A stretch of DNA of 64,000 nucleotides from a virus (taxonomy: Duplodnaviria; Heunggongvirae; Uroviricota; Caudoviricetes): IMG/VR virus record IMGVR_UViG_3300033233_000005; one strand, given 5' to 3'. The notes under the pieces were generated by a model. That model saw only the letters and a list, made by a program, of their open reading frames with translations, made no database searches and was not told where the DNA came from. A program made the translations under genes and the position numbers. This document shows, piece by piece, positions 3,827 through 45,931 of the stretch (position 1 is the first letter of the stretch; each line of letters starts with the position of its first letter).

Positions 3827-4408
3827 ATGCCTACCCACACCCACTATCTCGACCGGGTCTGGACCGGCCCCAAACACTGGTACTACGTACGCATGGACGG
3901 TAACTGGACCAGGATTCAGCCAGTCAAAGTAAATTTCCATGACTCCTTTGAAGAATCTTACCGGTACGTACGGGAACGAATTGAGAACCTGTCCTGCTGG
4001 ATGACCACACACCGGCCCGGCATGTTAGACCTCCCTTTCAGGAACTGGCCTCTATACCAGAAGATGCTAGAACTGGGAGTAACTGTGAAGATTACTGATC
4101 TACTGTACTGGACTCATGCTGGATCGTACTGTTCTGAACTTAAACTTATCTCCCTGAGAGATCCTAAACTCAGTACATGGATGCACGAAATAGGGCATGC
4201 GGCAGAAGATAAACTGAGACTAAAGGCAGACGAGGTAGTGGCGGAAACAGCAGGGTGGGTAACGCGAAAGATGCTGGGCCTGAACTGTGACGAGTATAAG
4301 TCGGCCAGGTATATAAGGAATTATCTGGGTACTTGGACAAGCCGGTATAAGAAGATGTCTGGAGCCAAGAGAAGCGTGAAGCTAGTCGTACAGGAGTTAC
4401 TGTCATGA
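3827..4408 (+). CDS. putative zincin-like metallopeptidase (HEIGH motif)
   Basis: WMHEIGHAAED HExxH motif; ATGA-coupled to the downstream array. Confidence 0.5.
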   Translation: MPTHTHYLDRVWTGPKHWYYVRMDGNWTRIQPVKVNFHDSFEESYRYVRERIENLSCWMTTHRPGMLDLPFRNWPLYQKMLELGVTVKITDLLYWTHAGSYCSELKLISLRDPKLSTWMHEIGHAAEDKLRLKADEVVAETAGWVTRKMLGLNCDEYKSARYIRNYLGTWTSRYKKMSGAKRSVKLVVQELLS

Positions 4409-4680
4409 CAATAAAGTGGTATTGCATGACGCTTAATAGAGGTTCTATCCGTTTTGAGATAGAAGGCAGATTATATAATTGGTATCATGATATTGATAAT
4501 TCAGATACGACTACACCAATAGTAATTACATTCTGGAGGGACACAGTAGACATTAACGTCTTGTTTCCATATAATGCCTCACAACATACGCTGAATCCGG
4601 TTCAGTATAGGGTGATGAAGTTTATAAACGAGAATCCTGAAATTATCTTTGATCCCCTTTGGGACGGAATTATACCATGA
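4405..4680 (+). CDS. DPLW-tail family protein (tandem array member 1)
   Basis: MTIKWY...NENPEIIFDPLWDGIIP; ATGA overlap upstream. Confidence 0.7.
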   Translation: MTIKWYCMTLNRGSIRFEIEGRLYNWYHDIDNSDTTTPIVITFWRDTVDINVLFPYNASQHTLNPVQYRVMKFINENPEIIFDPLWDGIIP

Positions 4681-4988
4681 AGGAATGCGGCAAGGAGATC
4701 ATGAAACTGACATGGCTAGCGCACCCACTTGCTATAGGTAAGTACTGGGTTATGGTCAAAGTTAACGATCAGATTATCATGGTCTCGATGACGATGGCAG
4801 AACGGGTACGACTAACAAAGCGTCGGGAGGAGGAGATAGGATATGTTGTATACCACATCGATGAACTTATCAGAGAATTGGCAAATAATCACGATTCTGA
4901 AAATGTTCAATATAATAAGGCCCTCAAGTTTCTTAATAATCACCCGGAGTACCTGTTTGACCCCCTTTGGAATGGAATTATACCATGA
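4677..4988 (+). CDS. DPLW-tail family protein
   Basis: MKECGKEIMKLTWLAH...LNNHPEYLFDPLWNGIIP; ATGA overlap. Confidence 0.7.
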   Translation: MKECGKEIMKLTWLAHPLAIGKYWVMVKVNDQIIMVSMTMAERVRLTKRREEEIGYVVYHIDELIRELANNHDSENVQYNKALKFLNNHPEYLFDPLWNGIIP

Positions 4989-5308
4989 AGATCACTTGGT
5001 ATCTGATATCAGACCTTGGGACGGCGATGATCCTATTCAAGGTAGACAAAATAGACATATGGTTTACTTATCATTATGTGTACCATACTGAAATGAAACG
5101 CCAGGTAGTAAAGATACTTATGCTGAAAAATCAAAATGGTTGGGTACAGAGTCCGGTAAGTGAATACTCATATAGACTTGCTCATGCTCAGGTGACGCCT
5201 AGGAACCAACCTGTTGGTAATGCTGCTATTATCAAGAAGATAGAGAAGTTTGTTAAAAATAATACAACCATAATATTTGATCCCCTTTGGGACGGAATTA
5301 TACCATGA
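4985..5308 (+). CDS. DPLW-tail family protein
   Basis: MKITWYLI...IIFDPLWDGIIP; ATGA overlap. Confidence 0.7.
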   Translation: MKITWYLISDLGTAMILFKVDKIDIWFTYHYVYHTEMKRQVVKILMLKNQNGWVQSPVSEYSYRLAHAQVTPRNQPVGNAAIIKKIEKFVKNNTTIIFDPLWDGIIP

Positions 5309-5589
5309 AGCACAACCTTGAATGGTACTACTTTATGTCAGGTGTCGATTATGTTTACTCGGTATTTAAGTATAAGGGATTGGTACACGACTGGGTATAT
5401 GACAACAAGGGTCATAAGGTAAACGTACAACTGGGATGCCATTGGGGAGAACATGAAAATAAAGACTTGATACCATTGGGTGCCGAGATGATGGAACGGA
5501 TCAAACCCGATGACATAAGGGTAATAAAATTTCTAGATGAGAATCCAGGCATCTGGAACGATCCGTTATGGGACAGGATAGTACCATGA
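5305..5589 (+). CDS. DPLW-tail family protein
   Basis: ...FLDENPGIWNDPLWDRIVP; ATGA overlap. Confidence 0.7.
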   Translation: MKHNLEWYYFMSGVDYVYSVFKYKGLVHDWVYDNKGHKVNVQLGCHWGEHENKDLIPLGAEMMERIKPDDIRVIKFLDENPGIWNDPLWDRIVP

Positions 5590-5852
5590 AGCTGGAATGG
5601 CTGAGAGATAAGATCACCGGCATAGTGTTTTACAGGGTAAACGGTCTGATCTACCATTGGGTCTTACGTGAAGGCAAGGTTAAACTCGGTAAGCCTGGAT
5701 TCCTACTCAGCCCACAAAGCATGATCATCGCCGCCGATCGTTTGGAACCGTTAATAGATTATTATGGCTTGGATGAATACCGACTGCCGGTGGTGTTGTT
5801 TCTAGATAAGAATCCTGAACTCGTCTTTGATCCCTTTGGGATGGAACTATAA
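5586..5852 (+). CDS. DPLW-tail family protein, C-terminal motif disrupted by a 1-nt deletion in a C-run
   Basis: MKLEWLRD...LDKNPELVFDPFGMEL*; tccctttggg versus tcccctttggg in paralogs. Confidence 0.55.
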   Translation: MKLEWLRDKITGIVFYRVNGLIYHWVLREGKVKLGKPGFLLSPQSMIIAADRLEPLIDYYGLDEYRLPVVLFLDKNPELVFDPFGMEL

Positions 5853-5853
5853 C

Positions 5854-6123
5854 ATGAGGACCTGGTATGTTCGGTATACCAAGGGGTACAGAGAAGGAAT
5901 ACTTGAATCCTTATATTTACAATCTGGAACCAAATGGTTTTCCATCAGGCACAATCTGGCTGGAGGCACGAGCCTGAGTAATTCGTTAATCGTAAATATC
6001 GAACTGATGGTCAAGGTAATAAGCAAGGATCGGATATATCATAAGCATCAGGTAGCCATGGACTTTATGGAAGCCAACCCAGACATTGAATTTGACCCAC
6101 TCTGGGACAGGAGGATACTGTGA
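5854..6123 (+). CDS. DPLW-tail family protein
   Basis: MRTWYVRY...MEANPDIEFDPLWDRRIL. Confidence 0.65.
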   Translation: MRTWYVRYTKGYREGILESLYLQSGTKWFSIRHNLAGGTSLSNSLIVNIELMVKVISKDRIYHKHQVAMDFMEANPDIEFDPLWDRRIL

Positions 6124-6380
6124 AAATCTCCTGGTACATCGGCCACGGGGCTTACTGGGCCAAGGTGAACGACCAGTGGTACCAGATTTACATACTCGGG
6201 CCGTACATGGGTGGTGAATTGATGGTTACCAGAACTCTCTGGAAGGAATTGGATGCTCCTGTCGGTGTGAAACCGGTTGATCTAAAACGTACCTCGTGGA
6301 TTGAAAACAATATGATGGATCACTTCAATTACAACCCCGGCTATCTGTTTGATCCGTTGTGGAATGGGAGGATAATGTGA
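6120..6380 (+). CDS. DPLW-tail family protein
   Basis: GTGA overlap; KISWYIG...NYNPGYLFDPLWNGRIM. Confidence 0.65.
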   Translation: MKISWYIGHGAYWAKVNDQWYQIYILGPYMGGELMVTRTLWKELDAPVGVKPVDLKRTSWIENNMMDHFNYNPGYLFDPLWNGRIM

Positions 6381-6682
6381 GCAAAGCTACCTGGTGGTAC
6401 GATTTCACTGACGATGGAAGGTATGTGGTAGCATGCTTTGAAGTTGAGGGTAAATACTTCTCTTGGAATGCTGAAGGCAAGGTATTAGAATCTCATACAG
6501 CAGATCATAGCGGTTATACCGAATTCGATGAAACCCACTGTAAGCTGGTGTTTAAACTGCTTGAATATAGGTTTCCTAACTCACAAGGCTTTAGTTACGC
6601 CTTTGCTATGACTATGTTTAAACTGATCAACGCCAATCCTCAGATTGTGTTTGATCCTCTATGGGATAGAAAGATTATATGA
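6377..6682 (+). CDS. DPLW-tail family protein
   Basis: GTGA overlap; ...INANPQIVFDPLWDRKII. Confidence 0.6.
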   Translation: MSKATWWYDFTDDGRYVVACFEVEGKYFSWNAEGKVLESHTADHSGYTEFDETHCKLVFKLLEYRFPNSQGFSYAFAMTMFKLINANPQIVFDPLWDRKII

Positions 6683-6996
6683 AGGTTAGATGGTTTAGAA
6701 TGCCGATCCCGTTGGCTGGTGATACTTATCTGGAAGTTAACGGAAGAGAATTTGATGTAGTGGTTGAGGACATAATCCTGCCCTATCCACATGCATCACA
6801 TAAACTTGCTAAACTAGATAGGGCCGCCGTCAAACTGACTCCGGTAATAATAGTGCATCCAGCCAATAAGCAATACCTTAATACCAGGGATTTTAGGCGC
6901 ATGGATTATACATGGCGGCGTTGTATCCTCTACCTGAGCAACAATCCCGGCCTGATATTCGATCCCCTGTGGGATAAGGAGGTACCGCTAACATGA
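6679..6996 (+). CDS. DPLW-tail family protein
   Basis: ATGA overlap; MKVRWFRM...SNNPGLIFDPLWDKEVPLT. Confidence 0.65.
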   Translation: MKVRWFRMPIPLAGDTYLEVNGREFDVVVEDIILPYPHASHKLAKLDRAAVKLTPVIIVHPANKQYLNTRDFRRMDYTWRRCILYLSNNPGLIFDPLWDKEVPLT

Positions 6997-7139
6997 CCGA
7001 ATGGCGTCTGATCGCGTGGGCGTACGACCTGATCCGGCATCGGGTTCAGTTTCACTACTGGCCGGGCAACGGCCTGCGATATTACATCGTGCCGACGGCC
7101 GCCCGCGAGGCCCTGTTGTGGTTGGCATCCAGAACATGA
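6993..7139 (+). CDS. small high-GC ORF inserted in the array
   Basis: ATGA-coupled 48 aa ORF MTEWRLIAWAYDLIRH...; about 62% GC. Confidence 0.3.
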   Translation: MTEWRLIAWAYDLIRHRVQFHYWPGNGLRYYIVPTAAREALLWLASRT

Positions 7140-7444
7140 TGCTAGATAGCTGGGCAGTAGACCTCAACACATCGATGTTTAATTATAAGGGTAAGTTATA
7201 TTCTGCCCTATTAGTAACGCCTAGTGGACCACCTAGCGCCATCTTGATCAGAGAGGAGAGAGGATATATAGATCAAAGGCCGATTGTCAAAGGCGTTAGA
7301 CATTTGATTATTGACAAAGTTCTGGGCCTAGCCAAGGACAGCGGTTTACTAGACGACCCGCTGGCCTGGGATAATATCGGCAGTAATAAGCACATGTGGG
7401 TGAATACCGCTGGCCATTTGGTTCAACTAACGGACAGAACATGA
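7136..7444 (+). CDS. DPLW-tail family protein (DPLAW variant)
   Basis: MMLDSW...LLDDPLAWDNIGSNKH. Confidence 0.55.
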   Translation: MMLDSWAVDLNTSMFNYKGKLYSALLVTPSGPPSAILIREERGYIDQRPIVKGVRHLIIDKVLGLAKDSGLLDDPLAWDNIGSNKHMWVNTAGHLVQLTDRT

Positions 7445-7713
7445 ATAAGTGGTTCGTTGACAAGAACACCATCTATGGACAGCGAGAACTGTACATGCTG
7501 GGAATCGACGGCAACCTGTACATGGTGATTTCAGCAACGATCCTAGAGGGAGCATTGCTTAGGAAGATGCACGATGGGTTAGGCAATCACGATGGTCTGT
7601 TTCCTTTGTCTGACGCACATCAGTTGACCAAGCAGCAACTGGATATGTACGCCTTTATGAATGCTAATCCAAACATTGTCTATGACCCGCTCTGGGATGG
7701 CTGGTCGGCATGA
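7441..7713 (+). CDS. DPLW-tail family protein
   Basis: ATGA; MNKWFVDK...MNANPNIVYDPLWDGWSA. Confidence 0.65.
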   Translation: MNKWFVDKNTIYGQRELYMLGIDGNLYMVISATILEGALLRKMHDGLGNHDGLFPLSDAHQLTKQQLDMYAFMNANPNIVYDPLWDGWSA

Positions 7714-8006
7714 TTAAGATAAAGTTCTTGGTTGGTGGTCGGCACGGGGCGTTCTATCCGTATGCTATTGTCGGCAAGCGCACATACTTTATCGACACCA
7801 GGTGGTATAGCTTTAAACTGGTAGAGGTAGACTCAAATAATAATGAGGCATTTACCACCAGGCAGCTGACCAAAGTCTTAAAAGATAACATCGGTCTGAT
7901 CAATGACCCCCTGGCCTGGAAGGAAAAGAAGATTGGTAGTACGACCGAAAGGACACTTAAAATCGGCAAGTCACTCAACAAAATCAAGAAAGGAGATTAC
8001 ACCTGA
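7710..8006 (+). CDS. DPLW-tail family protein (DPLAW variant)
   Basis: ATGA; MIKIKFL...IGLINDPLAWKEKKIG. Confidence 0.6.
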   Translation: MIKIKFLVGGRHGAFYPYAIVGKRTYFIDTRWYSFKLVEVDSNNNEAFTTRQLTKVLKDNIGLINDPLAWKEKKIGSTTERTLKIGKSLNKIKKGDYT

Positions 8007-8094
8007 TCACCCTCAAGCGTCTGGTGTTCTTCCTGCTGATATTTATTGATGACGCGATTATCGTAGCCCTGGCCCTATGGAGGAAATTTCACGG

Positions 8095-8388
8095 ATGAAA
8101 CGTACCTGGCTGGTGGCCGAAGGTATCCACGAGGGACACTTACAGTTGTTCATGACGGTCGAGGACGAGATGTTTCAACACTGGTTCAAGGTCAGCTATC
8201 AGGTTATCGGATTTGACCACAGGCCGCGCTTGCACGAGTACCATTATGCCCTCAATCTAGAATTCCGTGAGATCGATCCCAACGGAAACCTCTCTATGTT
8301 AGACGCACCTCAGATTGCAGTAATCAGATTTGTAGAATCACATCCTGGCATTGAATTTGATCCCCTCTGGGATAGGATTGCTATATGA
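8095..8388 (+). CDS. DPLW-tail family protein
   Basis: MKRTWLVAEG...ESHPGIEFDPLWDRIAI; upstream ATG at 8077 also possible. Confidence 0.6.
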   Translation: MKRTWLVAEGIHEGHLQLFMTVEDEMFQHWFKVSYQVIGFDHRPRLHEYHYALNLEFREIDPNGNLSMLDAPQIAVIRFVESHPGIEFDPLWDRIAI

Positions 8389-8696
8389 AAATTATTTGGC
8401 GCATGCGTCCATTGCAATATTCTATCACGTTTAAACTGGGTCGGCAGTGGTATGAAGTAGAAGCCACCGATACCCTGTGGAGTTTGACTGGTGGACATAA
8501 GCCGACCGGGATTTTGATTCGCAAGATGCGTAAGCCATACACCCATACTATCGAGCCTAGCCCCATTCACCCTTTGCGTGTCATTATGGAGAAACATCAC
8601 AGCATCGTTAATGACCCGCTGGCCTGGAGTGAACGGTCGTGTCTTATGTTCTTGAAGATATTAAAGAACGACGTGAAGGTAATACAGGCCGGATGA
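8385..8696 (+). CDS. DPLW-tail family protein (DPLAW variant)
   Basis: ATGA; MKIIWRMR...HHSIVNDPLAWSERS. Confidence 0.6.
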   Translation: MKIIWRMRPLQYSITFKLGRQWYEVEATDTLWSLTGGHKPTGILIRKMRKPYTHTIEPSPIHPLRVIMEKHHSIVNDPLAWSERSCLMFLKILKNDVKVIQAG

Positions 8697-8992
8697 AAAT
8701 TACCTGGTTTAGTGGCGATACAGCTCCAAACGGGCGTATCAAAGACGGATTGTGGGTCTACTTCATGGTAGAGGGGGTAGACACCCTCTATACATGGCAG
8801 GGACACAATGATAGCTTTATAAAGATACAGCGTGTGCCCAGTTATATGGAATCCGGCATAGGGCTGACCCAGATATCATCAAACGATGTGAGAATACAGC
8901 CGCTGCAAAGGGACGTCATCAAATTCTTAACAGCACACACAGAACTAATATTTGATCCGTTGTGGAACGGAAACACAGAGGAGGTTAAATGA
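8693..8992 (+). CDS. DPLW-tail family protein
   Basis: ATGA; MKITWFSG...TAHTELIFDPLWNGNTEEVK. Confidence 0.65.
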   Translation: MKITWFSGDTAPNGRIKDGLWVYFMVEGVDTLYTWQGHNDSFIKIQRVPSYMESGIGLTQISSNDVRIQPLQRDVIKFLTAHTELIFDPLWNGNTEEVK

Positions 8993-9171
8993 TCAAGAAA
9001 CCACGCGATGAATGGGTGATAGTTATGCCCATCGATGACTTCTTCCCAAGAAATAGGGTTTTAGCAGTTTGTCTATCCAAATGGAAGGCTGCCTTGGTCG
9101 GATGGATCATTAACTACCTGATTGATCCGCTGGTTGAATCGTACCAGTTCGTAGATGAGGAGGACAAATGA
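8989..9171 (+). CDS. small protein with degenerate DPL tail
   Basis: ATGA; ...INYLIDPLVESYQF. Confidence 0.45.
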   Translation: MIKKPRDEWVIVMPIDDFFPRNRVLAVCLSKWKAALVGWIINYLIDPLVESYQFVDEEDK

Positions 9172-9476
9172 TCATTGTCGTCGCGTTCGATGTTGACAAT
9201 ACACTGATCTGGCAAGAAGCCGATTTGGTCGGCGGAGTTTTGGTTCCCAAGGGTGAACCAGCGCCGCACTACAAGAACATCGATCTGTTCAAGCACTTCG
9301 AACGGTGCGGCTGCCACATGGTGATCTGGTCTGGCGGCGGAATGGATTACGCCAAGCGCTGGGCCGAGAAGCTGGGCCTCAAGGCTGAAATCAGGGAGAA
9401 GAAATTGGCTAACGTAGTGGACATTGCCGTGGATGACCAGGATGTCATACTCGGTAAGGTCAATCTCAAGGTCTAA
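9168..9476 (+). CDS. minimal HAD-superfamily phosphatase-like protein
   Basis: ATGA; N-terminal VVAFDVDNTL (HAD motif I DxDxT). Confidence 0.5.
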   Translation: MIIVVAFDVDNTLIWQEADLVGGVLVPKGEPAPHYKNIDLFKHFERCGCHMVIWSGGGMDYAKRWAEKLGLKAEIREKKLANVVDIAVDDQDVILGKVNLKV

Positions 9477-10606: not shown

Positions 10607-10848
10607 TCCTGGTCTACGCGTCGCTACTAATCATCACGGTAACGTCCTTCGTAGGTTATATGCACGACTGTGTTACCCACTGTGTACGACGCCCCAATAC
10701 CGGCATGGATGGTTGGTGTGATACAATCGGTCCGTTCCATTTGAGGGGATATCGTGCCAACGGTAAGGGAGACGTAGTTTGGATAATTAGGTGCAAAGAC
10801 AAGATCATCTGGTCTACAATCGTCAATCTACCAATCCAGGAGGTATGA
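10603..10848 (+). CDS. hypothetical membrane/Cys-containing protein
   Basis: ATGA-coupled. Confidence 0.45.
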   Translation: MILVYASLLIITVTSFVGYMHDCVTHCVRRPNTGMDGWCDTIGPFHLRGYRANGKGDVVWIIRCKDKIIWSTIVNLPIQEV

Positions 10849-11162
10849 TGGGAGACGAAGAAATCAGGTTCTACACTTGCGTCGACGGACATGCCTTCGG
10901 ATTTAACGTTGGTGGAGTGGATTTTGGCTGTAGCCCAATGGATGATGAATTCACTGCACACAGAGTTAGCAGTATGCCAATCACAAAACGGTTGAATGAC
11001 AATGATGAACTGCCTATCTGGTTTATACAGCAAGGGCATAGCTTCACTACCAAACAGCTATTGGATACGTTGCGTGGGATGCGGAATCTCTTTACCGATC
11101 CCGAATTTGAGAACAAAAACATTCCATTCAGGGTGAATCAGGAGGACGACAATGCGGATTAA
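10846..11162 (+). CDS. hypothetical protein with variant tail LFTDPEF
   Basis: GGAGG RBS; ...RGMRNLFTDPEFENKNIPF. Confidence 0.45.
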
Positions 11163-15531: not shown

Positions 15532-16002
15532 ATGATCAAGCCATGGGATTGGGTCAGGTGGAAGGCGTATGTTTTGTCCTGGAGGTGGATTAATCGCATC
15601 CCCTGGATCTCATGGAAGAAGCGTAGCAAGCACCCGGCAACTAGTTGGTTGTTGTGGAAGGTATTTAACCTGACCAAACACGATGACTTCTGGGGCCAAG
15701 ACATCATTGTTAAGATTGATCCAACCAAGGTCATGCCGGTTTCCATCTGGATTGTCAAATTGGTGATGCAGGCCAGACAGTGTAGCAGGAATGAAGCTAG
15801 CCGCCTGATCAAACAGGGTAGTGTTCTACTGGATTATGACTGTGATTTGAAAACTGGAAAACTGAGTTGGGCCAAGATCACCGACCCTACCAAATCAGTA
15901 GAGTTAATGTTTGGTTCAGTATTGTGGGTCGGTAAGGATCGACCCTTCAGGGTAAGATACGGCTTTATCGATTTCATGCGGTGGGGATACTGGTATCCAT
16001 GA
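15532..16002 (+). CDS. hypothetical protein
   Basis: ATGA start MIKPWDW within ORF 15415..16002. Confidence 0.4.
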   Translation: MIKPWDWVRWKAYVLSWRWINRIPWISWKKRSKHPATSWLLWKVFNLTKHDDFWGQDIIVKIDPTKVMPVSIWIVKLVMQARQCSRNEASRLIKQGSVLLDYDCDLKTGKLSWAKITDPTKSVELMFGSVLWVGKDRPFRVRYGFIDFMRWGYWYP

Positions 16003-17825
16003 AATATCTAGAAGACGATTTTGAACGGGCTAGAAGGAAGGATAATCTGCCTAATGATGCGGTGGACGCAATCAGGGCGTATGGAATAAAGAATGTTGCA
16101 TCGATATTCCCAGATAAGGATGATATAGAATTGCTGGGATACGTTCCAACCACAACAAGGAGAGACATGACCAAAGAGCAGCTGATTACCAGCATGAAGG
16201 AAGCTCTGAAAGGAGCCAGGGAGAAGTTGGCACAGGTTGAACCCTTGGTAGCACGTCTGAAGTCCCCTCCCCTCAGCAGCGGGATCGTAATCAGTTTGAC
16301 CGAGATCGAATTGCCGATTATCGAATCCACCGCCATCAAGAAAGGGTCCAGGGTCCATCTCCGCACGGATAGTCCTTACGCTGATCAGAGCAGTACCGAT
16401 GGTACGGTGACCGAGACACGGGGAGAGGATGAAGGTCAGGTCGCTACCGTCAAGTGGGATGACGGTGGAAGGGACGGTTATGTGGTCAAGCGGGATCTGG
16501 AACCGGCTGCGGTAAATGGTCCTCCCAAGACCAAAAAGGTCCCTGCGGCTGTGACGGTGATGGACGGGCAGATGGTTATCCTGCGAGCTGACGGTATCAA
16601 GGCGAATCCGGGTGATACGGTGCTGATTCATCGGGAAGCCGGGGTCATCGTGGGTCCCGCTCCGTTCCAGATGACCGGTACGATCGCCAGTGTGATGAAG
16701 GCTGAGGGAGATCACATCGAGATCGCGTGGCAGGGCGGCACGCACACGATCATGCGAGCTGGGGTCGGCGCGGTCGAGGTCGGAGACAAGCTGGTGGTGG
16801 ATAACTCCGGATTCGCCGCCCTGCAGAACTTGGGGCAGGAGGAATCCCATACTCACGAGGATGCGACTGATGTGAGCTGGGACGATATCGGTGGACAGGA
16901 TGAGGCAAAGATGGCGATGCGGGAGGCGGTGGAGTTGAGCCGTACGCATGGTGAGCTGTTTCAGGGGTACAGCAAGCAGCAGACCAAGGGGATCCTGTTG
17001 TACGGTCCACCCGGCTGCGGGAAGACGATGCTGGCCAAGGCTGCGGCTACCGCCAATGCCAAGTTCGCCAAGGACACGGGAGCGAAAGGTGGATTCCTGT
17101 ACGTGAAGGGACCTGAGATCCTGAACCGATACGTGGGTGAGACTGAGGCTGCCATTCAGTCCCTCTATGCCGCAGCTAAGAAACACTTCAACAAGACCGG
17201 ATTCCCGGCGACCATCTGCATCGATGAAGCGGATGCCATCCTGGGAGAGCGGGGTTCGGGCAAGAGTTCTGATATCGAGCGCACGATCGTGCCGATGTTC
17301 CTCGCGGAAATGGACGGTCTGGAGAAGACGGGTGCTCTGACCATTCTCCTCACCAATCGGCCTGACGTGTTGGACCCGGCTGTGACGCGGGACGGACGCA
17401 TTGATCGGAGGGTGCGGGTGAGCCGACCCGATAAGGCGACGTCCAAGCAGATCATGGTACTATACCTTAAGAAGGCTCCCTTGGCAAGTGGGACATCGCT
17501 CGAAGAACTCGCGGCGACGGCTACGGATGCGATCTTTAACGAGCAACTGGTGGTCAACCGGTATCGAGAGATCACGCTGCACTTGGCTCATCTGGTGAAC
17601 GGGGCGACGTTGGCTGGTGTGGTGGAACGCGCCAAGTCTCGGGCCATGCACCGGGATATGGCGGCCAGGGTGAAGAAGGCGAGCGGTATCACGAAGGACG
17701 ATGTGATCGCTGCGGTCAAGGGCATCTACGAGGAGAGCCTGCACATCAACCATCGGGACGCGTTCCTGGAAGTGGCTGAGCGTCTCAATATCATGATGGA
17801 GGGAGTTACTCATGCCGGAACGTGA
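15999..17825 (+). CDS. AAA+ ATPase, Mpa/ARC (proteasome-associated unfoldase)-like
   Basis: Walker A GILLYGPPGCGKTMLAKA, Walker B ICIDEADAILG, second homology region NRPDVLDPAVTRDGRIDRRV; ARC-type insertion FLYVKGPEILNRYVGETE; OB-like N-terminal region. Confidence 0.8.
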   Translation: MKYLEDDFERARRKDNLPNDAVDAIRAYGIKNVASIFPDKDDIELLGYVPTTTRRDMTKEQLITSMKEALKGAREKLAQVEPLVARLKSPPLSSGIVISLTEIELPIIESTAIKKGSRVHLRTDSPYADQSSTDGTVTETRGEDEGQVATVKWDDGGRDGYVVKRDLEPAAVNGPPKTKKVPAAVTVMDGQMVILRADGIKANPGDTVLIHREAGVIVGPAPFQMTGTIASVMKAEGDHIEIAWQGGTHTIMRAGVGAVEVGDKLVVDNSGFAALQNLGQEESHTHEDATDVSWDDIGGQDEAKMAMREAVELSRTHGELFQGYSKQQTKGILLYGPPGCGKTMLAKAAATANAKFAKDTGAKGGFLYVKGPEILNRYVGETEAAIQSLYAAAKKHFNKTGFPATICIDEADAILGERGSGKSSDIERTIVPMFLAEMDGLEKTGALTILLTNRPDVLDPAVTRDGRIDRRVRVSRPDKATSKQIMVLYLKKAPLASGTSLEELAATATDAIFNEQLVVNRYREITLHLAHLVNGATLAGVVERAKSRAMHRDMAARVKKASGITKDDVIAAVKGIYEESLHINHRDAFLEVAERLNIMMEGVTHAGT

Positions 17826-19566: not shown

Positions 19567-19907
19567 GCTGGTCCGTTAGGCTCATGCCAGCCAATGGTGA
19601 AAATCCCGTATCCGTACCCACATTTACGGAAGGCGGGACCTATGCTATAGGTGGGACCAGCGTGGCTGATCTGAATGTAACCTACAATTATAGCAGGGTT
19701 TACAGAACGGTTGGTTTTGAATTTGGAGACATGGATGGGCGGAGGGCTGGTGACCTTATTCCTCAGATGGAGGGAGTGGTGCAGAAACTGGGAACGAAAC
19801 GAGACACCGATTATTGGGCCGCCACACCTGGGAATGCCGGTTATGCCTTAAATATCCTGCTGGGTTGGGCCGAGTTGTATCCAAACGCCAGATTCGAGAT
19901 AAACTGA
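19563..19907 (+). CDS. hypothetical protein
   Basis: GTGA-coupled. Confidence 0.45.
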   Translation: MSWSVRLMPANGENPVSVPTFTEGGTYAIGGTSVADLNVTYNYSRVYRTVGFEFGDMDGRRAGDLIPQMEGVVQKLGTKRDTDYWAATPGNAGYALNILLGWAELYPNARFEIN

Positions 19908-20659
19908 TGATAGATAGTTTCTCTGTCGAACACAGATTTCTGTCCAATTTCTGGCCAGCCAAGGTCAAACTGGATGGAATCGAATATCAGACAGTAGAGC
20001 ACGCCTATCAGGCCGCTAAGACGCTTGACCCCTTCCTGCGCAAGCCCTTCGAATCTATAGAACCGGGGAGGGCTAAACGCCTGGGCAAACGATTAAAGAT
20101 GCGGCCTGATTGGAAACAAGTTAAGATCCCTATTATGAAGGACCTATTATTACAGAAATTCGCTGATCCCGAGCTAAAACAGCTCCTACTGAGCACGGGA
20201 GATGAACTGCTGATAGAGGGTAACACCTGGGGCGACACATTCTGGGGGATATGTAGATCAGAGGGTAGCAATTATCTAGGTCAGATCCTAATGGGCATTC
20301 GTGCTATACTTAAAGAGGGTGATCACAGCATATTTGATAGGATACCGAGTACGCTGGTGTTTGGGTATATCGGCGTGACATTTCCAGCGGTTAGAACAAT
20401 GGACACAATATGGTGGATCTTAGATCAAACAGAGAATCCGGTGGAATTGGCGAGGACTAAACCACCTGCTGATGAATTCCACAGCTTTCATTCGGGCAAT
20501 GCATCACACGGTCAGTATCCTACTTGGGAGCATTGGCTCAAACAGTGGGTATTAGATAATGAGCAACTATTATATGATCCGTTGGCTTGGACCATTAGTA
20601 ATGGTGGAGCAATAACAAATGTCCTAATGATCAACCAGGAGGTTAAACATGCCAAGTAA
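19907..20659 (+). CDS. NADAR (YbiA/DUF1768)-domain protein fused to a DPLAW-tail module
   Basis: TGATGA coupling; MIDSFSVEHRFLSNFW, EHAYQAAK, GNTWGD...ICRSEGSNYLGQILMGIR; C-terminus EQLLYDPLAWTISNGG. Confidence 0.8.
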   Translation: MIDSFSVEHRFLSNFWPAKVKLDGIEYQTVEHAYQAAKTLDPFLRKPFESIEPGRAKRLGKRLKMRPDWKQVKIPIMKDLLLQKFADPELKQLLLSTGDELLIEGNTWGDTFWGICRSEGSNYLGQILMGIRAILKEGDHSIFDRIPSTLVFGYIGVTFPAVRTMDTIWWILDQTENPVELARTKPPADEFHSFHSGNASHGQYPTWEHWLKQWVLDNEQLLYDPLAWTISNGGAITNVLMINQEVKHAK

Positions 20660-21824: not shown

Positions 21825-21898
21825 GGGGCGGTAGCTCAATTGGTTAGAGCAACCGGCTCATAATCGGTAGGTTGTGGGATCGTTCCCCACCCGCCCCA
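21825..21898 (+). tRNA. tRNA-Met/Ile2 (CAU)
   Basis: GGGGCGG/CCGCCCC acceptor, TAGCTC..GAGC D-arm, anticodon loop CTCATAA; T-loop ATCGTTC. Confidence 0.7.
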
Positions 21899-21905: not shown

Positions 21906-22625
21906 ATGAAGATACTTATCACTAGTGACACACATGAAGGGATGACTATGCCTGAGATCCTAAATAACTTTTATAAGCAGATGAGCAAAGAGCGTCCCGA
22001 TCTGGTGTTGCATGCAGGTGACTGGGGTACCTGTGACCTACACGATGTTGACATAGCTATGGACATGTACAGACGGCAGTTGCGCAAGGTACAGACCGTA
22101 ACCGTGTTTGGTAATCATGATTACTGGCAGACCGGTGGGTCAATCAATTACAAGAGTGTAGTAGAAATGGGTATAGCATTGCGGGACACAGCAGCAAAAT
22201 ATCATATTGATTACCCGTTCCCACATTCTCATCAACTCCACCCGAATATTAACATCTATGGATTCGATGGCTGGTATGCGCATGATGACCCTCCTACCAA
22301 AGATATCAGATTCATGCCGCGTGATTTTGAGGGTAAACCGATGCATATAGGGATGAGGGGTAGGGCTCAACGGGAATTTAACTACATGTTGACCAATCCC
22401 ACGCCGTTCGCCGTTGGTAAGCCTAAGTTACTACTTACACACTTCCCTATGGCTGACAATCCGTTCTCTGCGCCAGCCCGATGGATGGACTTCGTAGCAC
22501 CAGAATTTGATTACCTAGTGGTTGGACATTCACACAGACCAGCCGATTATACAGTAGGAAAATGTCGAGTGATAAACCCAGGAAGTGATATAAACAACCC
22601 ACGCTACGTCGTACTGGAGGTCTGA
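21906..22625 (+). CDS. calcineurin-like metallophosphoesterase
   Basis: ITSDTHEG, HAGDWG, FGNHDY motifs. Confidence 0.8.
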   Translation: MKILITSDTHEGMTMPEILNNFYKQMSKERPDLVLHAGDWGTCDLHDVDIAMDMYRRQLRKVQTVTVFGNHDYWQTGGSINYKSVVEMGIALRDTAAKYHIDYPFPHSHQLHPNINIYGFDGWYAHDDPPTKDIRFMPRDFEGKPMHIGMRGRAQREFNYMLTNPTPFAVGKPKLLLTHFPMADNPFSAPARWMDFVAPEFDYLVVGHSHRPADYTVGKCRVINPGSDINNPRYVVLEV

Positions 22626-24256
22626 TGTCCAATCTTGGTAAGGCCGCGCCTATGCTCATGCCCAATGTGCCAGTAGCTACAAAGGAAGATGATGTGGTGC
22701 AGATCACTGTCCAGAATTCCGATTTGGAGAAACTGTACAAAGGTCTCAATAAAAAGAAGATCGCGCACATCAAAAAGTGCATGAATGGGAACAATAGGAT
22801 CATGTCGGTAATCAGGGTGAACATGGCCGAAGACTGGTTCATCAAAGCAATGTTCAAGTTTGACCTGGGCAGGCGTGACTACTTCGTCATCCAGGAAACC
22901 TTGAACGGCGATCCAGATATCCATAAGATGGTGATTACCGATCCGGCTCAATTGGAATATGCGATCAACAAGCTGGGTAAGAATGGCCAGTTGAATGCCG
23001 AGATCTTCCTCAACGGGCGCTGGTACCCGATCCATCTAGATGCCGAATACGAGACTGGCATGTTCGGTACCTATACCACTCTGTCTACCCCGTTGCACAT
23101 CGTTAATATCGACTATACGCGGCGGTGGTACGTTACCGACCGGCACTTTAACGATAGTAATGGCAGAAGCGCGTCCTATACGGTAGAGAAGATTCTGGAT
23201 ATGGTCGGTTTGCGTATGTTCCAGACTAATATTGAGGAATATCGGGCGCGGTGTCTCAAAGCCATCGACAACTACGGTCCGGCTGGTACGGTTAAAGAAT
23301 GTGTAGGTCCGGCCTTAAATCTGGGTGGGTTCATGTTCTGGACCATGCTAGATTCAATTGAGTTGGGAGATAAGACCAGTCCGCGCCGGGTGATCCTGGA
23401 GCGGCAACTGGAGACGAAACACGAGATTGACGATGATCCGGAGGATGTTATCCCCAACCGCCCAATGGAACAGAATCTCCCGTTTATCAGGGTATTTGCC
23501 ATCGATCATAAGGCGTATATGTATGTCGATGTGGACGACCTGCGGCCCGGCACTTTCGATGTTAAGGCAGTTGAGCGTCTGGTCCTGCCAGATGAGAAGG
23601 CGAAATTACTCAAGAGCCTGTTTACGGCTGATACCTCTTCCCTATTTGGTGACATGTTGAAAGGAAAGCACGGCGGGATGATCATTCTAGCGAACGGTCG
23701 GCCAGGGACCGGTAAGACCCTGACGGCTGAGGTCTTTGCCGAATACACCAAGCGCCCACTGTATGCCGTGGCCGTGGGTGAGTTGGGGCTGGATCTCGAA
23801 TCCATCGAACGAAATCTGCAGCGTATCTTCCGACGGGTAACAAAGTGGAATGCGGTTCTCCTTCTAGACGAGGCAGACATCTTCCTGGCCAAACGGGACG
23901 AGAACATCGAGCGGAGCGCCATCGTAGGGGTGTTCCTGCGGTTGCTCGATTACTATAAGGGGCTATTGTTTCTGACCACCAATCGGGTTGAGACGATCGA
24001 CGAGGCATTCAGGTCCCGTATCACGATTAAGTTGACGTACCCCGATCTGGAGAAGGAAGCCCGTTTGAAAATCTGGACTATGATGCTTAAGCAGGCAGAA
24101 GTACCTGTGAATGAATCATTGGGTCCTGTGGCCGATATGCCGATGAATGGACGCCAGATCAGAAATATGGTGCGGCTCATCAAGGTCCTTCACAAGGGGA
24201 AACCCGTTGTACCGGTGAAGGAGATCCTTGAGGTCTGCAAGTTCTCCAACGATTAA
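22625..24256 (+). CDS. AAA+ ATPase (C-terminal AAA domain, unknown N-terminal about 350 aa)
   Basis: Walker A NGRPGTGKT, Walker B LLLDEADIFL, TTNRVETIDEAFRSR. Confidence 0.8.
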   Translation: MSNLGKAAPMLMPNVPVATKEDDVVQITVQNSDLEKLYKGLNKKKIAHIKKCMNGNNRIMSVIRVNMAEDWFIKAMFKFDLGRRDYFVIQETLNGDPDIHKMVITDPAQLEYAINKLGKNGQLNAEIFLNGRWYPIHLDAEYETGMFGTYTTLSTPLHIVNIDYTRRWYVTDRHFNDSNGRSASYTVEKILDMVGLRMFQTNIEEYRARCLKAIDNYGPAGTVKECVGPALNLGGFMFWTMLDSIELGDKTSPRRVILERQLETKHEIDDDPEDVIPNRPMEQNLPFIRVFAIDHKAYMYVDVDDLRPGTFDVKAVERLVLPDEKAKLLKSLFTADTSSLFGDMLKGKHGGMIILANGRPGTGKTLTAEVFAEYTKRPLYAVAVGELGLDLESIERNLQRIFRRVTKWNAVLLLDEADIFLAKRDENIERSAIVGVFLRLLDYYKGLLFLTTNRVETIDEAFRSRITIKLTYPDLEKEARLKIWTMMLKQAEVPVNESLGPVADMPMNGRQIRNMVRLIKVLHKGKPVVPVKEILEVCKFSND

Positions 24257-24449: not shown

Positions 24450-24769
24450 ACAAGAGACAACAGGCTGCAATTAGGCGGTTAAAGAAGTACGTCATCAACA
24501 TCGCCAGGAGAAACATGCTGAAAGTGGTCAGTTTTGAACTGGCACCGGATGTACCTGGACCCCTGGATGTTGAGATCCGCACATACGATCGCATGAAGAA
24601 CAAGTTACTACAGAAACATAATGGAAAGTTTGTCGTGATCAAGGGAACCAAACTGTATGGCGTGTTCCTTAGCTTTGAGAATGCCGCGTACCATGGTGTC
24701 GCCAAATTTGGTAATACACCCATGCTGATCAGACAGGTACTGCGCCAGCAACCGGTGTATTTTCTATGA
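24446..24769 (+). CDS. hypothetical protein
   Basis: ATGA-coupled. Confidence 0.45.
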   Translation: MNKRQQAAIRRLKKYVINIARRNMLKVVSFELAPDVPGPLDVEIRTYDRMKNKLLQKHNGKFVVIKGTKLYGVFLSFENAAYHGVAKFGNTPMLIRQVLRQQPVYFL

Positions 24770-25026
24770 ATGAGAAGCCAGAATGGGTAATGGATATTGA
24801 TAACATGTGCCTGTATGTTAAATTTGCGAATAAGTGGTACCTCCCACAATGGGGAACCGACGGTAAGTTGGCCCTGGTAGAAGATGAGCATCCTCCCAAG
24901 GGAGCGCTACTCAAACAGATTAGAGACGAAATAGAACGGGTAGATAAACACTTCCTGTTGATCAATGATCCGCTGTACTCTGGGCGGAGTACCAACCGAA
25001 TCACCATTCCGCCCAAGGAGGAATAA
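24766..25026 (+). CDS. DPL-tail family protein (variant LLINDPLYSG)
   Basis: ATGA-coupled. Confidence 0.5.
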   Translation: MNEKPEWVMDIDNMCLYVKFANKWYLPQWGTDGKLALVEDEHPPKGALLKQIRDEIERVDKHFLLINDPLYSGRSTNRITIPPKEE

Positions 25027-25599: not shown

Positions 25600-25798
25600 G
25601 GAGGAACATGGACACTGACATCAAGTACCGGCCCTATGGCCTGTACCGCATGATGAATCCGGATATGAATCCCATCCAATTGTGGTTGATCTGGGCCTAT
25701 ACCGAGATCTCCAAGGCAATCCGGCACCGCAAGGCCAGAACCTTGTACAAGGCGATGGCGGAGTAACGGGATGGCGGGCAACCGCCATCCCTGCAATC

Positions 25799-26224
25799 AT
25801 GGCAAGACTACAATTTAAAATCAATGGCAACAGCAGCCACTGGGGTAAGCTAGTAGTTGTCCTACCCGGTTCATGGTGGATGGTTGATTGGATAGCTGAA
25901 CGGGGTATGATGCTACAGCGTATAGGCAAGGAACTTGTATTTAATAGTCATAGAATCGTCAAATCGATAAATTGGGTTCAATGCCGTGGTATGGTTGGCA
26001 CTTTAAAGCAGGATGGTGATACACCAAAGTATAGCTTAAAGACAATAAAGAGCGCCATCAAGCGGGACTTGTGGCAATTGACCGACCCCTTGCATGAAGG
26101 CGCTCATCCACCTACAATGCCAGGACAGAAGGCAGTACAAATAGAACTGTACTTCCGTAAGAAAAACAGGCGAACGATGCCATACTACGGTAAAAGGAGG
26201 GTGTTTGAATGGTACAGCAATTGA
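25799..26224 (+). CDS. hypothetical protein with degenerate tail LTDPLHEG
   Basis: internal ATG chosen within ORF 25682..26224. Confidence 0.4.
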   Translation: MARLQFKINGNSSHWGKLVVVLPGSWWMVDWIAERGMMLQRIGKELVFNSHRIVKSINWVQCRGMVGTLKQDGDTPKYSLKTIKSAIKRDLWQLTDPLHEGAHPPTMPGQKAVQIELYFRKKNRRTMPYYGKRRVFEWYSN

Positions 26225-26601
26225 TCACCCAGGAATTATCGGTGTGCATCGGCAATGGACACCTTTGTGTGCGTGTCTATGGTAGCTGGTGGTTCGTGTC
26301 TCAAGTTGGATCACGGCGTATCTGGTTAGAGAAGGGATTGGAACACATCCAATTGCAGTTGAATCTCAAGCCGACGGTACGTAATATTCACCTTTACGGA
26401 GTGGCAGGATGGGGCACGATACACGAATGTCTTGATGGCAACTACTACTTGGGTCCGCAATCTGCATCATTCTCTGCCCAAGACATTTGGGATAGGGTGA
26501 AAAATTATGCCTATGATCCCATGGTAATGGAGAACGACAAGGCTATCAAGGGGCGTCTGGTGTTTAAGCTCCCTGAGTTTGATGAGTTACGCGTATGGTA
26601 G
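26209..26601 (+). CDS. hypothetical protein (tail YDPMVMEND)
   Basis: 130 aa ORF. Confidence 0.4.
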   Translation: MVQQLITQELSVCIGNGHLCVRVYGSWWFVSQVGSRRIWLEKGLEHIQLQLNLKPTVRNIHLYGVAGWGTIHECLDGNYYLGPQSASFSAQDIWDRVKNYAYDPMVMENDKAIKGRLVFKLPEFDELRVW

Positions 26602-28053: not shown

Positions 28054-28259
28054 CCTTCACGCATCAGGGGGAGGAACACACGGTCGATGTGGCGTCTGAT
28101 GACGAATTTGTCACTATAGTTAACATCGATGGCATGCAATTCGAATGTGACCACAAGATGATCATCGATCACCGTGACCCCGATGGTGAACTGTCTGATC
28201 GTGGACTACGTAGTATTGCTATTTCGATCTTCAAGGACCTGGACAGATTAGATGAATAA
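28050..28259 (+). CDS. hypothetical protein
   Basis: ATGA-coupled. Confidence 0.45.
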   Translation: MTFTHQGEEHTVDVASDDEFVTIVNIDGMQFECDHKMIIDHRDPDGELSDRGLRSIAISIFKDLDRLDE

Positions 28260-28548
28260 TCGGCCTGAGATCAAATTATACTTGCATCACAGTTACGGTG
28301 TCGTTAAATTATTTGCCACGATCAATGGCAAAGTGTACAGGTGCATGCGTATAGACCCGAATGGAGCGGCCATGACCATAACACGTGACGGATATTTAGA
28401 AGACAAATTGCCACACGGTTGTATCGATCTGACAGCCGTAGTTGATACTGTTGCGTCAAGATTGGGTGAAATCATGGATCCTCTGGCATGGACTAAACAA
28501 CAGGGGTACGATAATGCTACACAGATGAGGTTAAAGAAAAATGTCTAA
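28252..28548 (+). CDS. DPLAW-tail family protein
   Basis: ...LGEIMDPLAWTKQQG. Confidence 0.55.
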   Translation: MNNRPEIKLYLHHSYGVVKLFATINGKVYRCMRIDPNGAAMTITRDGYLEDKLPHGCIDLTAVVDTVASRLGEIMDPLAWTKQQGYDNATQMRLKKNV

Positions 28549-29080
28549 ATTCCTCCCTGCCGATCATTATAGAGATTGGTTCAAGGGTAAAGAACTGTTG
28601 GTTAAACCGGCCATGTTGGACATATCCAAACCGGCTGAGATCAATACCAAAGTGGGTGGCAAAGAAACCAGATTTGTAATGAGTTTCCAATCCATGCACC
28701 ATCCCATGTATGTGATGGACAATAGAGGCCATCATTGGGAAGTGCAGGGCGCGGTTAAAACTTCATTCGGTCTGCAGGTTACCTTGCATGGTCCAATCCT
28801 CAATAAAGATCCTGAAAAAGTAATGATGAGTAGTAATGATGGAGTCTCATCTACAATCACTGATATCGATTTTGTTGAGTTGAAGGAAGACGGTAGTTCA
28901 GTAAATGATAAAGGCGGTCTGGTTAAGACAGACCCGGCATTGCCGTTGGTAATTAATATCATGGCTACGGTTCGGGCCAACATCAATACACTCTTGGACC
29001 CTCTGGCATACGAGGATCGCAAAGTGACTCTCCGAGACTGGCCACCCGGTGAGATAGCTACCCTATATCAAACCGATTAA
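28541..29080 (+). CDS. DPLA-tail family protein
   Basis: ...NINTLLDPLAYEDRKV. Confidence 0.5.
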   Translation: MSKFLPADHYRDWFKGKELLVKPAMLDISKPAEINTKVGGKETRFVMSFQSMHHPMYVMDNRGHHWEVQGAVKTSFGLQVTLHGPILNKDPEKVMMSSNDGVSSTITDIDFVELKEDGSSVNDKGGLVKTDPALPLVINIMATVRANINTLLDPLAYEDRKVTLRDWPPGEIATLYQTD

Positions 29081-29144: not shown

Positions 29145-29480
29145 ATGGACAGACCGGTAGTAGAAGTAAATGTCCTGACCAATCTAGGTAGGTCAGGAGA
29201 GTTCTTTCATGAGATCGCCGTCAAAGCTGGCGACAAGGTGTGGTCCCTATATGGGATCAGTCAGGATAAGTCCTCTCTAATATTCAAATTGGTTAGGACT
29301 GACAAATATGAGGCTATCAAGCGCGGCTCCTTACACCAGTTTATGCCATTGCGTCAGTTGACCGATCTATTGGAACAGAATATTGGGATCCTATTCGATC
29401 CACTGGCCGTTGACGGTAAGGATGGACGCGATACTATCACGCTGCCTATTCCTGGTCGTTCTCCAGTGGAGAAGAAGTGA
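29145..29480 (+). CDS. DPLA-tail family protein
   Basis: RBS AGGAGG; ...NIGILFDPLAVDGKDG. Confidence 0.55.
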   Translation: MDRPVVEVNVLTNLGRSGEFFHEIAVKAGDKVWSLYGISQDKSSLIFKLVRTDKYEAIKRGSLHQFMPLRQLTDLLEQNIGILFDPLAVDGKDGRDTITLPIPGRSPVEKK

Positions 29481-37591: not shown

Positions 37592-37873
37592 ATGAAAATT
37601 ACCAATCGCAGTGGCCGCTATGAAATTGAACATACTGGTAAGTGGTACCATGCAACATACGATGGACACTATAGTTCTGTGGTAATACGTCACGGACGCG
37701 GTGAACATGGTAGAGCCGAGTATCTATTGGAATCGTTGGTGTGTGACTTGATCACGAAAAATGTTGATTTATTGAATGATCCATTAGCATGGGAAGATCA
37801 TCCTAAAGGACCATCTGACAAAGGTGGGAGAGTGTACGGCATGGAAAATATCCTGGTCATCAGACATGCATAA
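37592..37873 (+). CDS. DPLAW-tail family protein
   Basis: ...NVDLLNDPLAWEDHPKG. Confidence 0.55.
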   Translation: MKITNRSGRYEIEHTGKWYHATYDGHYSSVVIRHGRGEHGRAEYLLESLVCDLITKNVDLLNDPLAWEDHPKGPSDKGGRVYGMENILVIRHA

Positions 37874-45917: not shown

Positions 45918-45931
45918 CAGTTTTATAAAAT

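Follow-up and report, generated by a model that had tools for sequence, protein, structure and literature searches.

T4-like phages amplify small anti-defense genes, such as tifA against ToxIN (PMC9391042), and amplification driven by SegB takes place at tRNA loci (PMC13096335). Genomic-accordion families of viruses include the amplified K3L gene of poxviruses (PMC3953438) and the ankyrin repeats of Bodo saltans virus (PMC5871332). Furthermore, phages harbor NADAR "orphan antitoxin" enzymes that neutralize DarT toxins and counter DarT1 (PMC11825919). We analyzed a stretch of 64,000 nucleotides (nt), referred to here as the window, from a virus of the Caudoviricetes (IMG/VR record IMGVR_UViG_3300033233_000005). 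It encodes a large family of small proteins that share a short motif close to the C terminus, of which 16 form a head-to-tail array at positions 4405 to 9171 and others are scattered over the window. The shared tail is very probably not a tag but the most strongly conserved edge of a single family of folded domains, and the family as a whole probably represents a lineage-specific, fast-diverging repertoire of paralogs on one scaffold. The window is phage-like, with open reading frames (ORFs) located nearly all on the plus strand and with 38 tRNA genes.

The strict expression DP[LF]A?W matched 21 times on the plus strand of the window and not once on the minus strand. A motif hidden Markov model (HMM), iterated over the 1,168 six-frame stop-to-stop segments, converged on 26 ORFs at E<0.01, and the nine weaker matches were found on the plus strand only, each with 'h-h-x-D-P-L/F' (h, hydrophobic; x, any residue) near the C terminus. 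A relaxed form of the motif was present within the last 50 amino acids (aa) of 35 of the 187 plus-strand ORFs, as compared to 0 of the 227 minus-strand ORFs, and shuffling of residues resulted in a mean of 0.74 and a maximum of 4 ORFs. The codons of the motif are synonymously mixed, with 27 GAT and 12 GAC codons for Asp, four different Pro codons, and six different Leu codons, and conservation is therefore at the protein level. A previous sequence-only reading of this DNA had reported the motif, the array, the scattered members, and the synonymous codon variation, and these claims were borne out by the pattern search, the motif HMM, the strand specificity, and the codon counts. A DNA-level reading of the GATC within GAT-CCN was dropped because Asp codon choice in the motif matches the window background (GAT share of 69% versus 59%, which we regard as close). 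The whole window contains 432 GATC sites, compared to ~244 expected from base composition.

The gene ends in the array are 61-82% identical at the DNA level, as might be expected if the motif were a DNA repeat, an assembly artifact, or a chance pattern instead of a protein feature. This explanation is refuted by the strand-specific counts, the shuffling control, and the synonymous codons, and has practically no probability left: the matches are strand- and frame-specific, the ORFs are intact and coupled, and the same first gene is present in an independent Logan assembly.

In total, the window contains 40 family members, 29 of them solid and 11 marginal. Solid members have an E value of <1e-3 in the motif HMM, in a leave-one-out profile, or in a profile from whose training set they were absent, and marginal members have the motif at the right place with an E value between 1e-3 and ~6. 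Five further members are located just outside the window, four upstream and one downstream. The former are weak members on the minus strand (locus L001, 2657-4498), in a divergently transcribed block upstream of the window; the latter is a clear member of 208 aa on the plus strand just past the right end (locus L023, 12346-12972; E value of 1.7e-9), with N-terminal and C-terminal profile matches in the correct order. The next ~8 kb contain no family members, and the genes there are for replication and nucleotide metabolism. The earlier count of more than 45 motif proteins was thus right about the shared motif and not about the number, which is 40 in the window plus the 5 just outside. The paralogs are deeply diverged (20-30% identity), have isoelectric points (pI) of 4.5 to 10.1, and differ in the distance from the DPL motif to the C terminus (4 to 49 aa).

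Conservation persisted in proper full-length multiple alignments, in which the strands, the helix, and the motif are conserved. A first strand (often M-K-x-x-W) is followed by a 'G...h-x-V-x-G-x-x-h-x-h' hairpin and a fourth strand, after which a middle part of variable length leads to an amphipathic helix that terminates in N-x-(P/G)-h-h-x-D-P-L-(A)-W. Two subtypes were distinguished. The short-tail subtype, dominant in the array, has DPLW and 3-6 further residues, whereas the long-tail subtype, dominant outside the array, has DPLAW or DPLAV and 13-49 further residues, often with 'h-x-h-P'. The motif had been placed at the C-terminal end, which applies to the short-tail proteins and not to the 'DPLAW' subtype.

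AlphaFold2 (AF2) models of one member of each subtype are concordant in topology, with a predicted local distance difference test (pLDDT) score of 83-84 and a predicted template modeling (pTM) score of 0.69-0.75. The model of 37592-37873 has strands at residues 2-5, 10-14, 17-24, and 29-34, helices at 47-56 and 58-62, DPLAW at 63-67, and strands at 68-71 and 84-91; that of 4405-4680 has strands at 3-7, 15-19, 22-28, and 39-44, helices at 65-76 and 78-82, and DPLW at 83-86. The 10-residue blocks that contain the motif have pLDDT scores of 94 and 89-95. At E<1e-3, leave-one-out profiles recovered 26 of 30 members, and the alignments covered profile positions ~1-95. For several scattered members, full-length scores were far above tail-only scores (33 versus 6 bits for 38635; 25 versus 10 bits for 32583). 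With a profile of the N-terminal 50 residues of the array proteins, 37592, 50113, 24766, 38635, and 37866 were among the best non-array matches, at the correct N-terminal positions. In 61236, 40363, 33247, and L023 12346, inserts of up to ~150 aa split the N-terminal strands from the C-terminal helix and motif.

The only other recognizable domain found on a motif-bearing protein in the window is NADAR, in 19907-20659 (Pfam PF08719; 84.9 bits against a cut-off of 35.1; E value of 9.5e-24), which is a NADAR member by this score. In the leave-one-out search, residues 216-298 of its stop-to-stop segment matched profile positions 26-112, so that this protein is a domain fusion and not a tagged enzyme. 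The NADAR fusion that had been noted was hence confirmed, with most of the family domain, and not the tail alone, following the enzyme domain.

These data do not support a free C-terminal linear tag or degron, since the motif is in high-pLDDT blocks right after a helix and 13-49 residues follow in the long-tail subtype. They also do not support a tag on unrelated folds, given that the leave-one-out profiles align full lengths and that most of the family domain follows the NADAR domain. The proposal that the tail is modular and that the proteins do not form one globular family is thus opposed by the AF2 folds and the full-length alignments. The diverse N-terminal bodies that it invoked correspond mostly to an insert of variable length that separates strand 4 from the helix, and not to unrelated bodies, as a weak but real beta-meander signature is shared. 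Our most confident conclusion is accordingly that conservation is strongest in the tail because it forms one edge of a domain with a single fold throughout the family, and this family domain is probably a small undescribed alpha/beta domain of ~60-110 aa without inserts. It would begin with a beta-meander of four strands at the N terminus and continue with a loop or insert that varies from 0 to ~150 aa, followed by the amphipathic helix with the motif, to which the long-tail subtype would add one or two further strands ('h-x-h-P'). D-P-L-(W) may have a structural role, capping the helix, forming a turn, and holding the helix against the sheet as a hydrophobic staple.

Conservation is highest in the tail, and one member is an enzyme fusion, both of which would suit a docking or targeting module, where the helix with DPL(A)W, or the whole domain, is recognized by one common partner and the variable part is a cargo or adaptor surface. 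We consider this unlikely: the motif is modeled inside the folded domain, directly behind the helix; 13-49 residues follow the motif in most scattered members; the motif was never seen on an otherwise recognizable fold without the N-terminal strands; and D, P, L, and W are residues typical of caps and cores.

The family members of the array, and one ORF without the motif, are as follows (LOO, leave-one-out profile; coupling, overlap of stop and start codons).

4405-4680 (+): array member 1, 91 aa, short tail ending in NPEIIFDPLWDGIIP before the stop; motif HMM E 4.8e-12; LOO full profile E 2e-14; AF2 model m8b4e36b5aad8, pLDDT 84, pTM 0.75; ATGA at both ends
4677-4988 (+): array member 2, 103 aa, short tail; motif HMM, LOO, coupling
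4985-5308 (+): array member 3, 107 aa, short tail; motif HMM, LOO, coupling
5305-5589 (+): array member 4, 94 aa, short tail; motif HMM, LOO, coupling
5586-5852 (+): array member 5, 88 aa, frameshifted tail FDPFGMEL before the stop; motif HMM E 3.9e-6
5854-6123 (+): array member 6, 89 aa, short tail; motif HMM, LOO
6120-6380 (+): array member 7, 86 aa, GTG start, short tail; motif HMM, LOO, coupling
6377-6682 (+): array member 8, 101 aa, GTG start, short tail; motif HMM, LOO, coupling
6679-6996 (+): array member 9, 105 aa, short tail; motif HMM, LOO, coupling
6993-7139 (+): ORF of 48 aa without the motif, starting with MTEWRLIAW (MTEWRLIAWAYDL...); ATGA-coupled on both sides
7136-7444 (+): array member 10, 102 aa, long tail (DPLAW and 22 aa); motif HMM, LOO E 1e-4
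7441-7713 (+): array member 11, 90 aa, short tail; motif HMM, LOO
7710-8006 (+): array member 12, 98 aa, long tail; motif HMM, LOO E 3e-13
8095-8388 (+): array member 13, 97 aa, short tail, after the sole real intergenic gap; motif HMM, LOO
8385-8696 (+): array member 14, 103 aa, long tail; motif HMM, LOO
8693-8992 (+): array member 15, 99 aa, short tail; motif HMM, LOO
8989-9171 (+): array member 16, 60 aa, minimal and marginal, 'DEWVIVM...YLIDPLVESY'; motif by eye, HMM E only ~6

The array thus comprises the 16 head-to-tail paralogs that had been announced as a minimum, and ATGA or GTGA overlaps occur at 15 of the 17 junctions across positions 3827 to 9476 and not, as claimed, at every one. 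The two other junctions are a true gap of 88 nt (8007-8094) before 8095, and 5852/5854. In the latter case, the overlap is missing because one C is absent from the motif of gene 5586-5852 (motif at ~5829-5852), in the CCCC run of 'gat ccc ctt tgg'. Adding this C back converts the ending FDPFGMEL into FDPLWDGTIT, each followed by a stop, and regains the ATGA overlap with 5854; the loss is either a homopolymer assembly error or the mark of a real decaying copy. The ORF 6993-7139 lies in a locally GC-rich stretch in which a second long frame (7001-7444) is also open, and it may, with uncertainty, be an N-terminal remnant of a family member.

Genes are frequently ATGA-coupled throughout the window, and such coupling is thus a general style of this genome that is not specific to the array. 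The array would be translated as a coupled operon. Shine-Dalgarno-like GGA, AGG, or GGAGG sequences were found 7-12 nt upstream of each coupled start. In short-tail genes, these same sequences encode the residues after the W (D/N-G/R-I-I-P), so that some of the apparent motif at the same time serves as the Shine-Dalgarno sequence for the next gene. The last 66 nt of the short-tail array genes have the DNA identity of 61-82% mentioned above, with the first three junctions nearly identical, and thereby offer a substrate for unequal recombination.

Two subclades are intermixed in the array, with pair scores far above the shuffled background, and its long-tail genes resemble scattered genes more closely than they do the genes next to them. 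A test of similarity against adjacency for recent tandem duplication gave no overall signal. Mutual homology, same orientation, and restricted taxonomic spread were all observed, as in a tandem paralog array or lineage-specific expansion. The array is flanked by two ATGA-coupled genes. The first (3827-4408), coupled to the first array gene, encodes a protein of 193 aa with a metalloprotease-like HEIGH (HExxH) motif, which had no match in Pfam or PHROGs and no relatives in IMG/VR. The second (9168-9476), coupled to the array end, encodes a protein that starts with 'MIIVVAFDVDNTL', resembling HAD-phosphatase motif I, and had no Pfam or PHROG match at the thresholds used.

The scattered members in the window are as follows.

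10845-11162 (+): marginal member, 105 aa, 'NLFTDPEF'; LOO E 2.1, architecture by alignment only
19907-20659 (+): NADAR domain (PF08719), then most of the family domain (last ~85-100 aa); Pfam NADAR match as above, LOO E 3e-5
24766-25026 (+): marginal member, 86 aa, 'LLINDPLYSG'; LOO E 0.036, N-terminal-only profile E 0.077
25682-26224 (+): marginal member, 180 aa, 'WQLTDPLHEG'; full profile E 0.0035-0.01, positions 19-109
26209-26601 (+): marginal member, 130 aa, 'YAYDPMVME'; LOO E 0.99, architecture only
28252-28548 (+): member, 98 aa, long tail; motif HMM, LOO E 2e-6
28541-29080 (+): marginal member, 179 aa, long N-terminal or insert region, 'TLLDPLAYE'; E 0.026-0.12
29145-29480 (+): member, 111 aa, 'ILFDPLAVDG'; motif HMM, LOO E 6e-12
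30195-30599 (+): member, 134 aa, long tail; motif HMM, LOO
30596-31108 (+): marginal member, 170 aa, 'MFLDPFAIA'; E 0.4-0.8
32583-32909 (+): member, 108 aa, 'LLFDPLAIN'; tail-only E 0.05, LOO full-length E 1.4e-6
32906-33247 (+): member, 113 aa; motif HMM, LOO E 5e-12
33247-33927 (+): member, 226 aa, large insert; full profile E 5e-4, outside the training set
37592-37873 (+): member, 93 aa, long tail; AF2 model m96d7e69e8b9b, pLDDT 83, pTM 0.69; motif HMM, LOO
37866-38168 (+): member, 100 aa, 'LLFDPFAWNN'; motif HMM, LOO E 1e-10
38635-39048 (+): member, 137 aa, 'LLADPLYIT'; tail-only 6 bits, LOO full-length 33 bits, E 3.5e-9
40363-40935 (+): member, 190 aa, large insert; motif HMM E 2.8e-7, full profile E 4e-5, outside the full-length training set
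48570-48998 (+): marginal member, 142 aa, between tRNA genes, 'YFCDPLMKE'; full profile E 1.3e-3
50113-50430 (+): member, 105 aa, between tRNA genes, short-tail clade; motif HMM, LOO E 3e-12
51195-51578 (+): member, 127 aa, between tRNA genes; motif HMM, LOO
53732-54211 (+): marginal member, 159 aa, between tRNA genes, 'IFYDPLAPY'; LOO E 0.048
57506-57835 (+): marginal member, 109 aa, 'MFFDPFAQI'; E 0.005-0.02
60442-61002 (+): marginal member, 186 aa, 'ELIDPFFWQ'; E 1.3e-3 and 4e-4
61236-61898 (+): member, 220 aa, ~150-aa insert between N-terminal strands and helix; motif HMM E 6e-6, two-part match to the full profile

Searches of Pfam, PHROGs, PDB, and BFVD revealed no relatives of these proteins. 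Among 31 members scanned against Pfam, no family was matched by more than one member (best E value of 0.0088), and the large members were also without matches. The best E value of 10 members in PHROGs was 0.016, where only the NADAR part had a match (phrog_1017), and a profile search of the PDB sequences gave nothing below an E value of 0.5. These results agree with the earlier statement that the motif belongs to no described domain. A Foldseek search of BFVD revealed no relative (best E value of 0.26). An exhaustive HMMER search with a 30-member profile against 1.84 billion cluster representatives resulted in 30 matches at E<1e-3, of which 29 are encoded in the window. The remaining match, P0028, is a 527-aa protein of eight GYF_2 repeats with an atypical 'VWYDPLPQW', and hhalign to its repeats gave a probability of 74% over only 23 columns (helix, strand, and 'DPL'). 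Membership in GYF_2 (PF14237) was rejected, since no family member matches that profile and P0028 shows a local resemblance of the tail region only, which hinges on its eightfold atypical variant; the GYF_2 unit is ~50 aa with a beta-beta-alpha-beta-beta order, as compared to the predicted four-strand meander and helix of the family.

A word-seeded search of 5.8e9 proteins with the array profile retrieved self matches only, and the same type of search with a 42-aa tail profile retrieved nothing at E≤10, a low-power test since even self matches were missed. Among 50,697 GenBank phage records, the window has no close DNA relative; a 20-kb near-DNA search of the INPHARED phages gave only a 42-nt tRNA match, and tblastn with three large members against phages found nothing. 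A degenerate NPxxxFDPLW DNA pattern matched 11 loci in IMG/VR, all by chance, including LysM/tail-X-like 'NPNTLFDPLWDF' proteins, and a longer pattern gave one chance match each in the JGI metagenomes and the GTDB genomes. An assignment to LysM or phage tail protein X-like domains (PF01476, PF05489), which would call for a profile match and a beta-alpha-alpha-beta fold with 'N..h....G..h.hP', was rejected.

Phage genomes are usually compact. Taken together, one family accounts for roughly one in four predicted genes of this 64-kb window and for ~23% of its bases, and this family was found nowhere else among ~15 billion public proteins, in the sense that no relative as close as the paralogs are to each other was detected, since the weakest members in the window are themselves below the threshold of the large search. 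For a phage, both this scale and the orphan status are out of the ordinary, and we know of no larger single-family expansion in a phage of such size.

The 38 tRNA genes of the window cover all 20 amino acids, are located at 45847-57994 and 21825-21898, and are interleaved with small ORFs that include family members. The tRNA region also encodes CxxC zinc-ribbon-like mini-proteins (for example, 50669-51028, 52356-52544, and 52629-52757). At 49964-50109, a 78-nt unit is present 1.9 times with 76% identity; its second copy is a tRNA-Val (50035-50109), and the first copy is therefore a degenerate tRNA-like duplicate. A second paralog family of three proteins of ~200-236 aa is encoded at 41682-42287, 42979-43602, and 43730-44440; two of them start with 'MHRGTP', two have '...QKWQ.DT...' near the C terminus, and none has a Pfam match.

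The location of five members between tRNA genes would fit small beta-barrels (Sm-like or ToxN/Kid-like) that bind nucleic acids and act on tRNA or mRNA, for example, by guarding the 38 tRNAs or by blocking host anticodon nucleases or type III toxins. This is improbable: with so wide a pI range, the members have no basic surface in common, ToxI-like tandem RNA repeats are absent, and ToxN is double the size. The ToxN/AbiQ type III toxins, which would require a structural match with a convincing Z score, a size of ~170 aa, and an adjacent ToxI-like tandem RNA repeat, were rejected as relatives.

Several neighboring genes form a proteostasis-like cluster. The protein encoded at 15999-17825 is a proteasome-ATPase-like AAA+ protein with a weak OB-domain match, that at 22625-24256 is a second AAA+ protein (PHROG annotation 'ATP-dependent protease'), and that at 36226-37338 is a MoxR-like ATPase with a DUF2201 VWA/metallopeptidase in its neighborhood (39066-40361). 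An SPFH/Band 7 protein (31511-32521) is counted in this cluster together with the AAA+ genes. For a docking module, candidate partners would be these three ATPases, capsid or portal proteins, or a host hub, and the presence of three AAA+ genes and the VWA/metallopeptidase among the members speaks in its favor. However, no family member is present within 10 kb at nine IMG/VR loci of related phages that encode the proteasome-ATPase-like AAA+ protein (37-45% identity).

Other neighbors are a metallophosphoesterase, NADAR, DNA ligase, RNase HII, and dCMP deaminase, and no structural genes were seen in the ~85 kb examined. The region looks like an accessory, early-type region. The coordinates of L001 and L023 on contig ERZ27248239:k141_1314216 (163,875 bp) place the window across the contig ends, with ~1.2 kb of redundancy. 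The genome, of ~162.7 kb, thus seems to be complete and either circular or terminally redundant.

Paralogous internal head proteins are known in large phages such as SPN3US (PMC5694885), and the shared terminal element of the present family resembles a targeting signal, as would be the case for internal or ejection proteins that are packaged into the virion by a common capsid-targeting element. Since the motif belongs to a folded domain, no structural genes lie in or beside the region examined, and the neighbors are tRNA, nucleotide-metabolism, and replication genes, we consider packaging highly improbable.

We thus favor a lineage-specific, fast-diverging paralog repertoire on one scaffold as the probable overall reading. 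A domain would have been multiplied to at least 40 copies, which account for roughly one gene in four within a ~70-kb accessory/tRNA region of the ~163-kb genome, by duplication and divergence, presumably under host-phage conflict. One scaffold would present variable loops, inserts, and surfaces, and in one case a fused NADAR enzyme. It is possible, although somewhat less than an even chance, that the copies form a host-interaction repertoire, namely, small cytoplasmic proteins that would each bind a different host factor or defense protein.

Several observations weigh against this reading. The AF2 models were built on a shallow alignment of paralogs only, and the burial of D-P-L-W is a presumption. 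The N-terminal similarity of the scattered members is individually weak (E values of 0.01-3 with the N-terminal-only profile, and 0.01-0.7 for the five matches named above), and 11 of the 40 members are only marginal. The strongest conservation lies in the tail, which would suit a shared binding epitope as well. Finally, the deep divergence and the lack of an adjacency signal imply an expansion that is either old or fast evolving. Taken further, and tentatively, more than 40 scaffold 'binders' might each be tuned to a different host defense or host factor, as a fixed and diversified genomic accordion, or the domain might be a docking module through which many different cargos or targets reach a single phage machine, for example, the proteasome-ATPase-like AAA+ protein.

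Should the copies be host-directed inhibitors, they would constitute a ready library of ~40 scaffold variants for screening against defense systems and essential host proteins. The scaffold, which is confidently predicted and has no convincing structural neighbor, could become a new binder framework. In addition, the family illustrates that a striking shared 'tail' can be mistaken for a tag although it marks the edge of a fast-diverging domain where conservation is highest.

Short linear tags at the C terminus include the cargo-loading peptides of encapsulins, the C-terminal tail of SSB, and the clamp-binding motif QL[SD]LF. The present family resembles these in that a short conserved sequence near the C terminus is common to many proteins of one genome. 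However, linear tags are located on flexible linkers and unrelated folds, whereas the family motif follows a helix inside a shared domain and is usually nonterminal, and it matches none of the encapsulin, SSB, or clamp-binding consensus motifs. At the level of folds, the nearest known systems include SH3-like or small beta-barrel folds with a C-terminal helix (ToxN/AbiQ, HspQ/YccV, Sm-like, and PWWP). Protein 19907-20659 has a bona fide NADAR domain in common with the phage NADAR enzymes (PMC11825919), and differs from them by an additional C-terminal copy of the orphan domain.

A general literature search on phage multigene families retrieved nothing specific. The amplifications of T4-like phages described above are similar to the present case in the raised copy number of small genes and in their location in accessory/tRNA regions. 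They are, however, recent identical repeats that were observed in experiments and do not form a diverged family, whereas the family analyzed here is deeply diverged. The K3L and Bodo saltans virus families share with it the tandem head-to-tail multiplication in a large DNA virus and a scaffold that is kept while its members vary, with host-virus conflict as the presumed driving force, but concern viruses of eukaryotes and either known domains or near-identical recent copies. In contrast, the phage family is based on an orphan domain present in ~40 copies of 20-30% identity, both in an array and scattered, on which host-phage conflict may have acted as the selective force.

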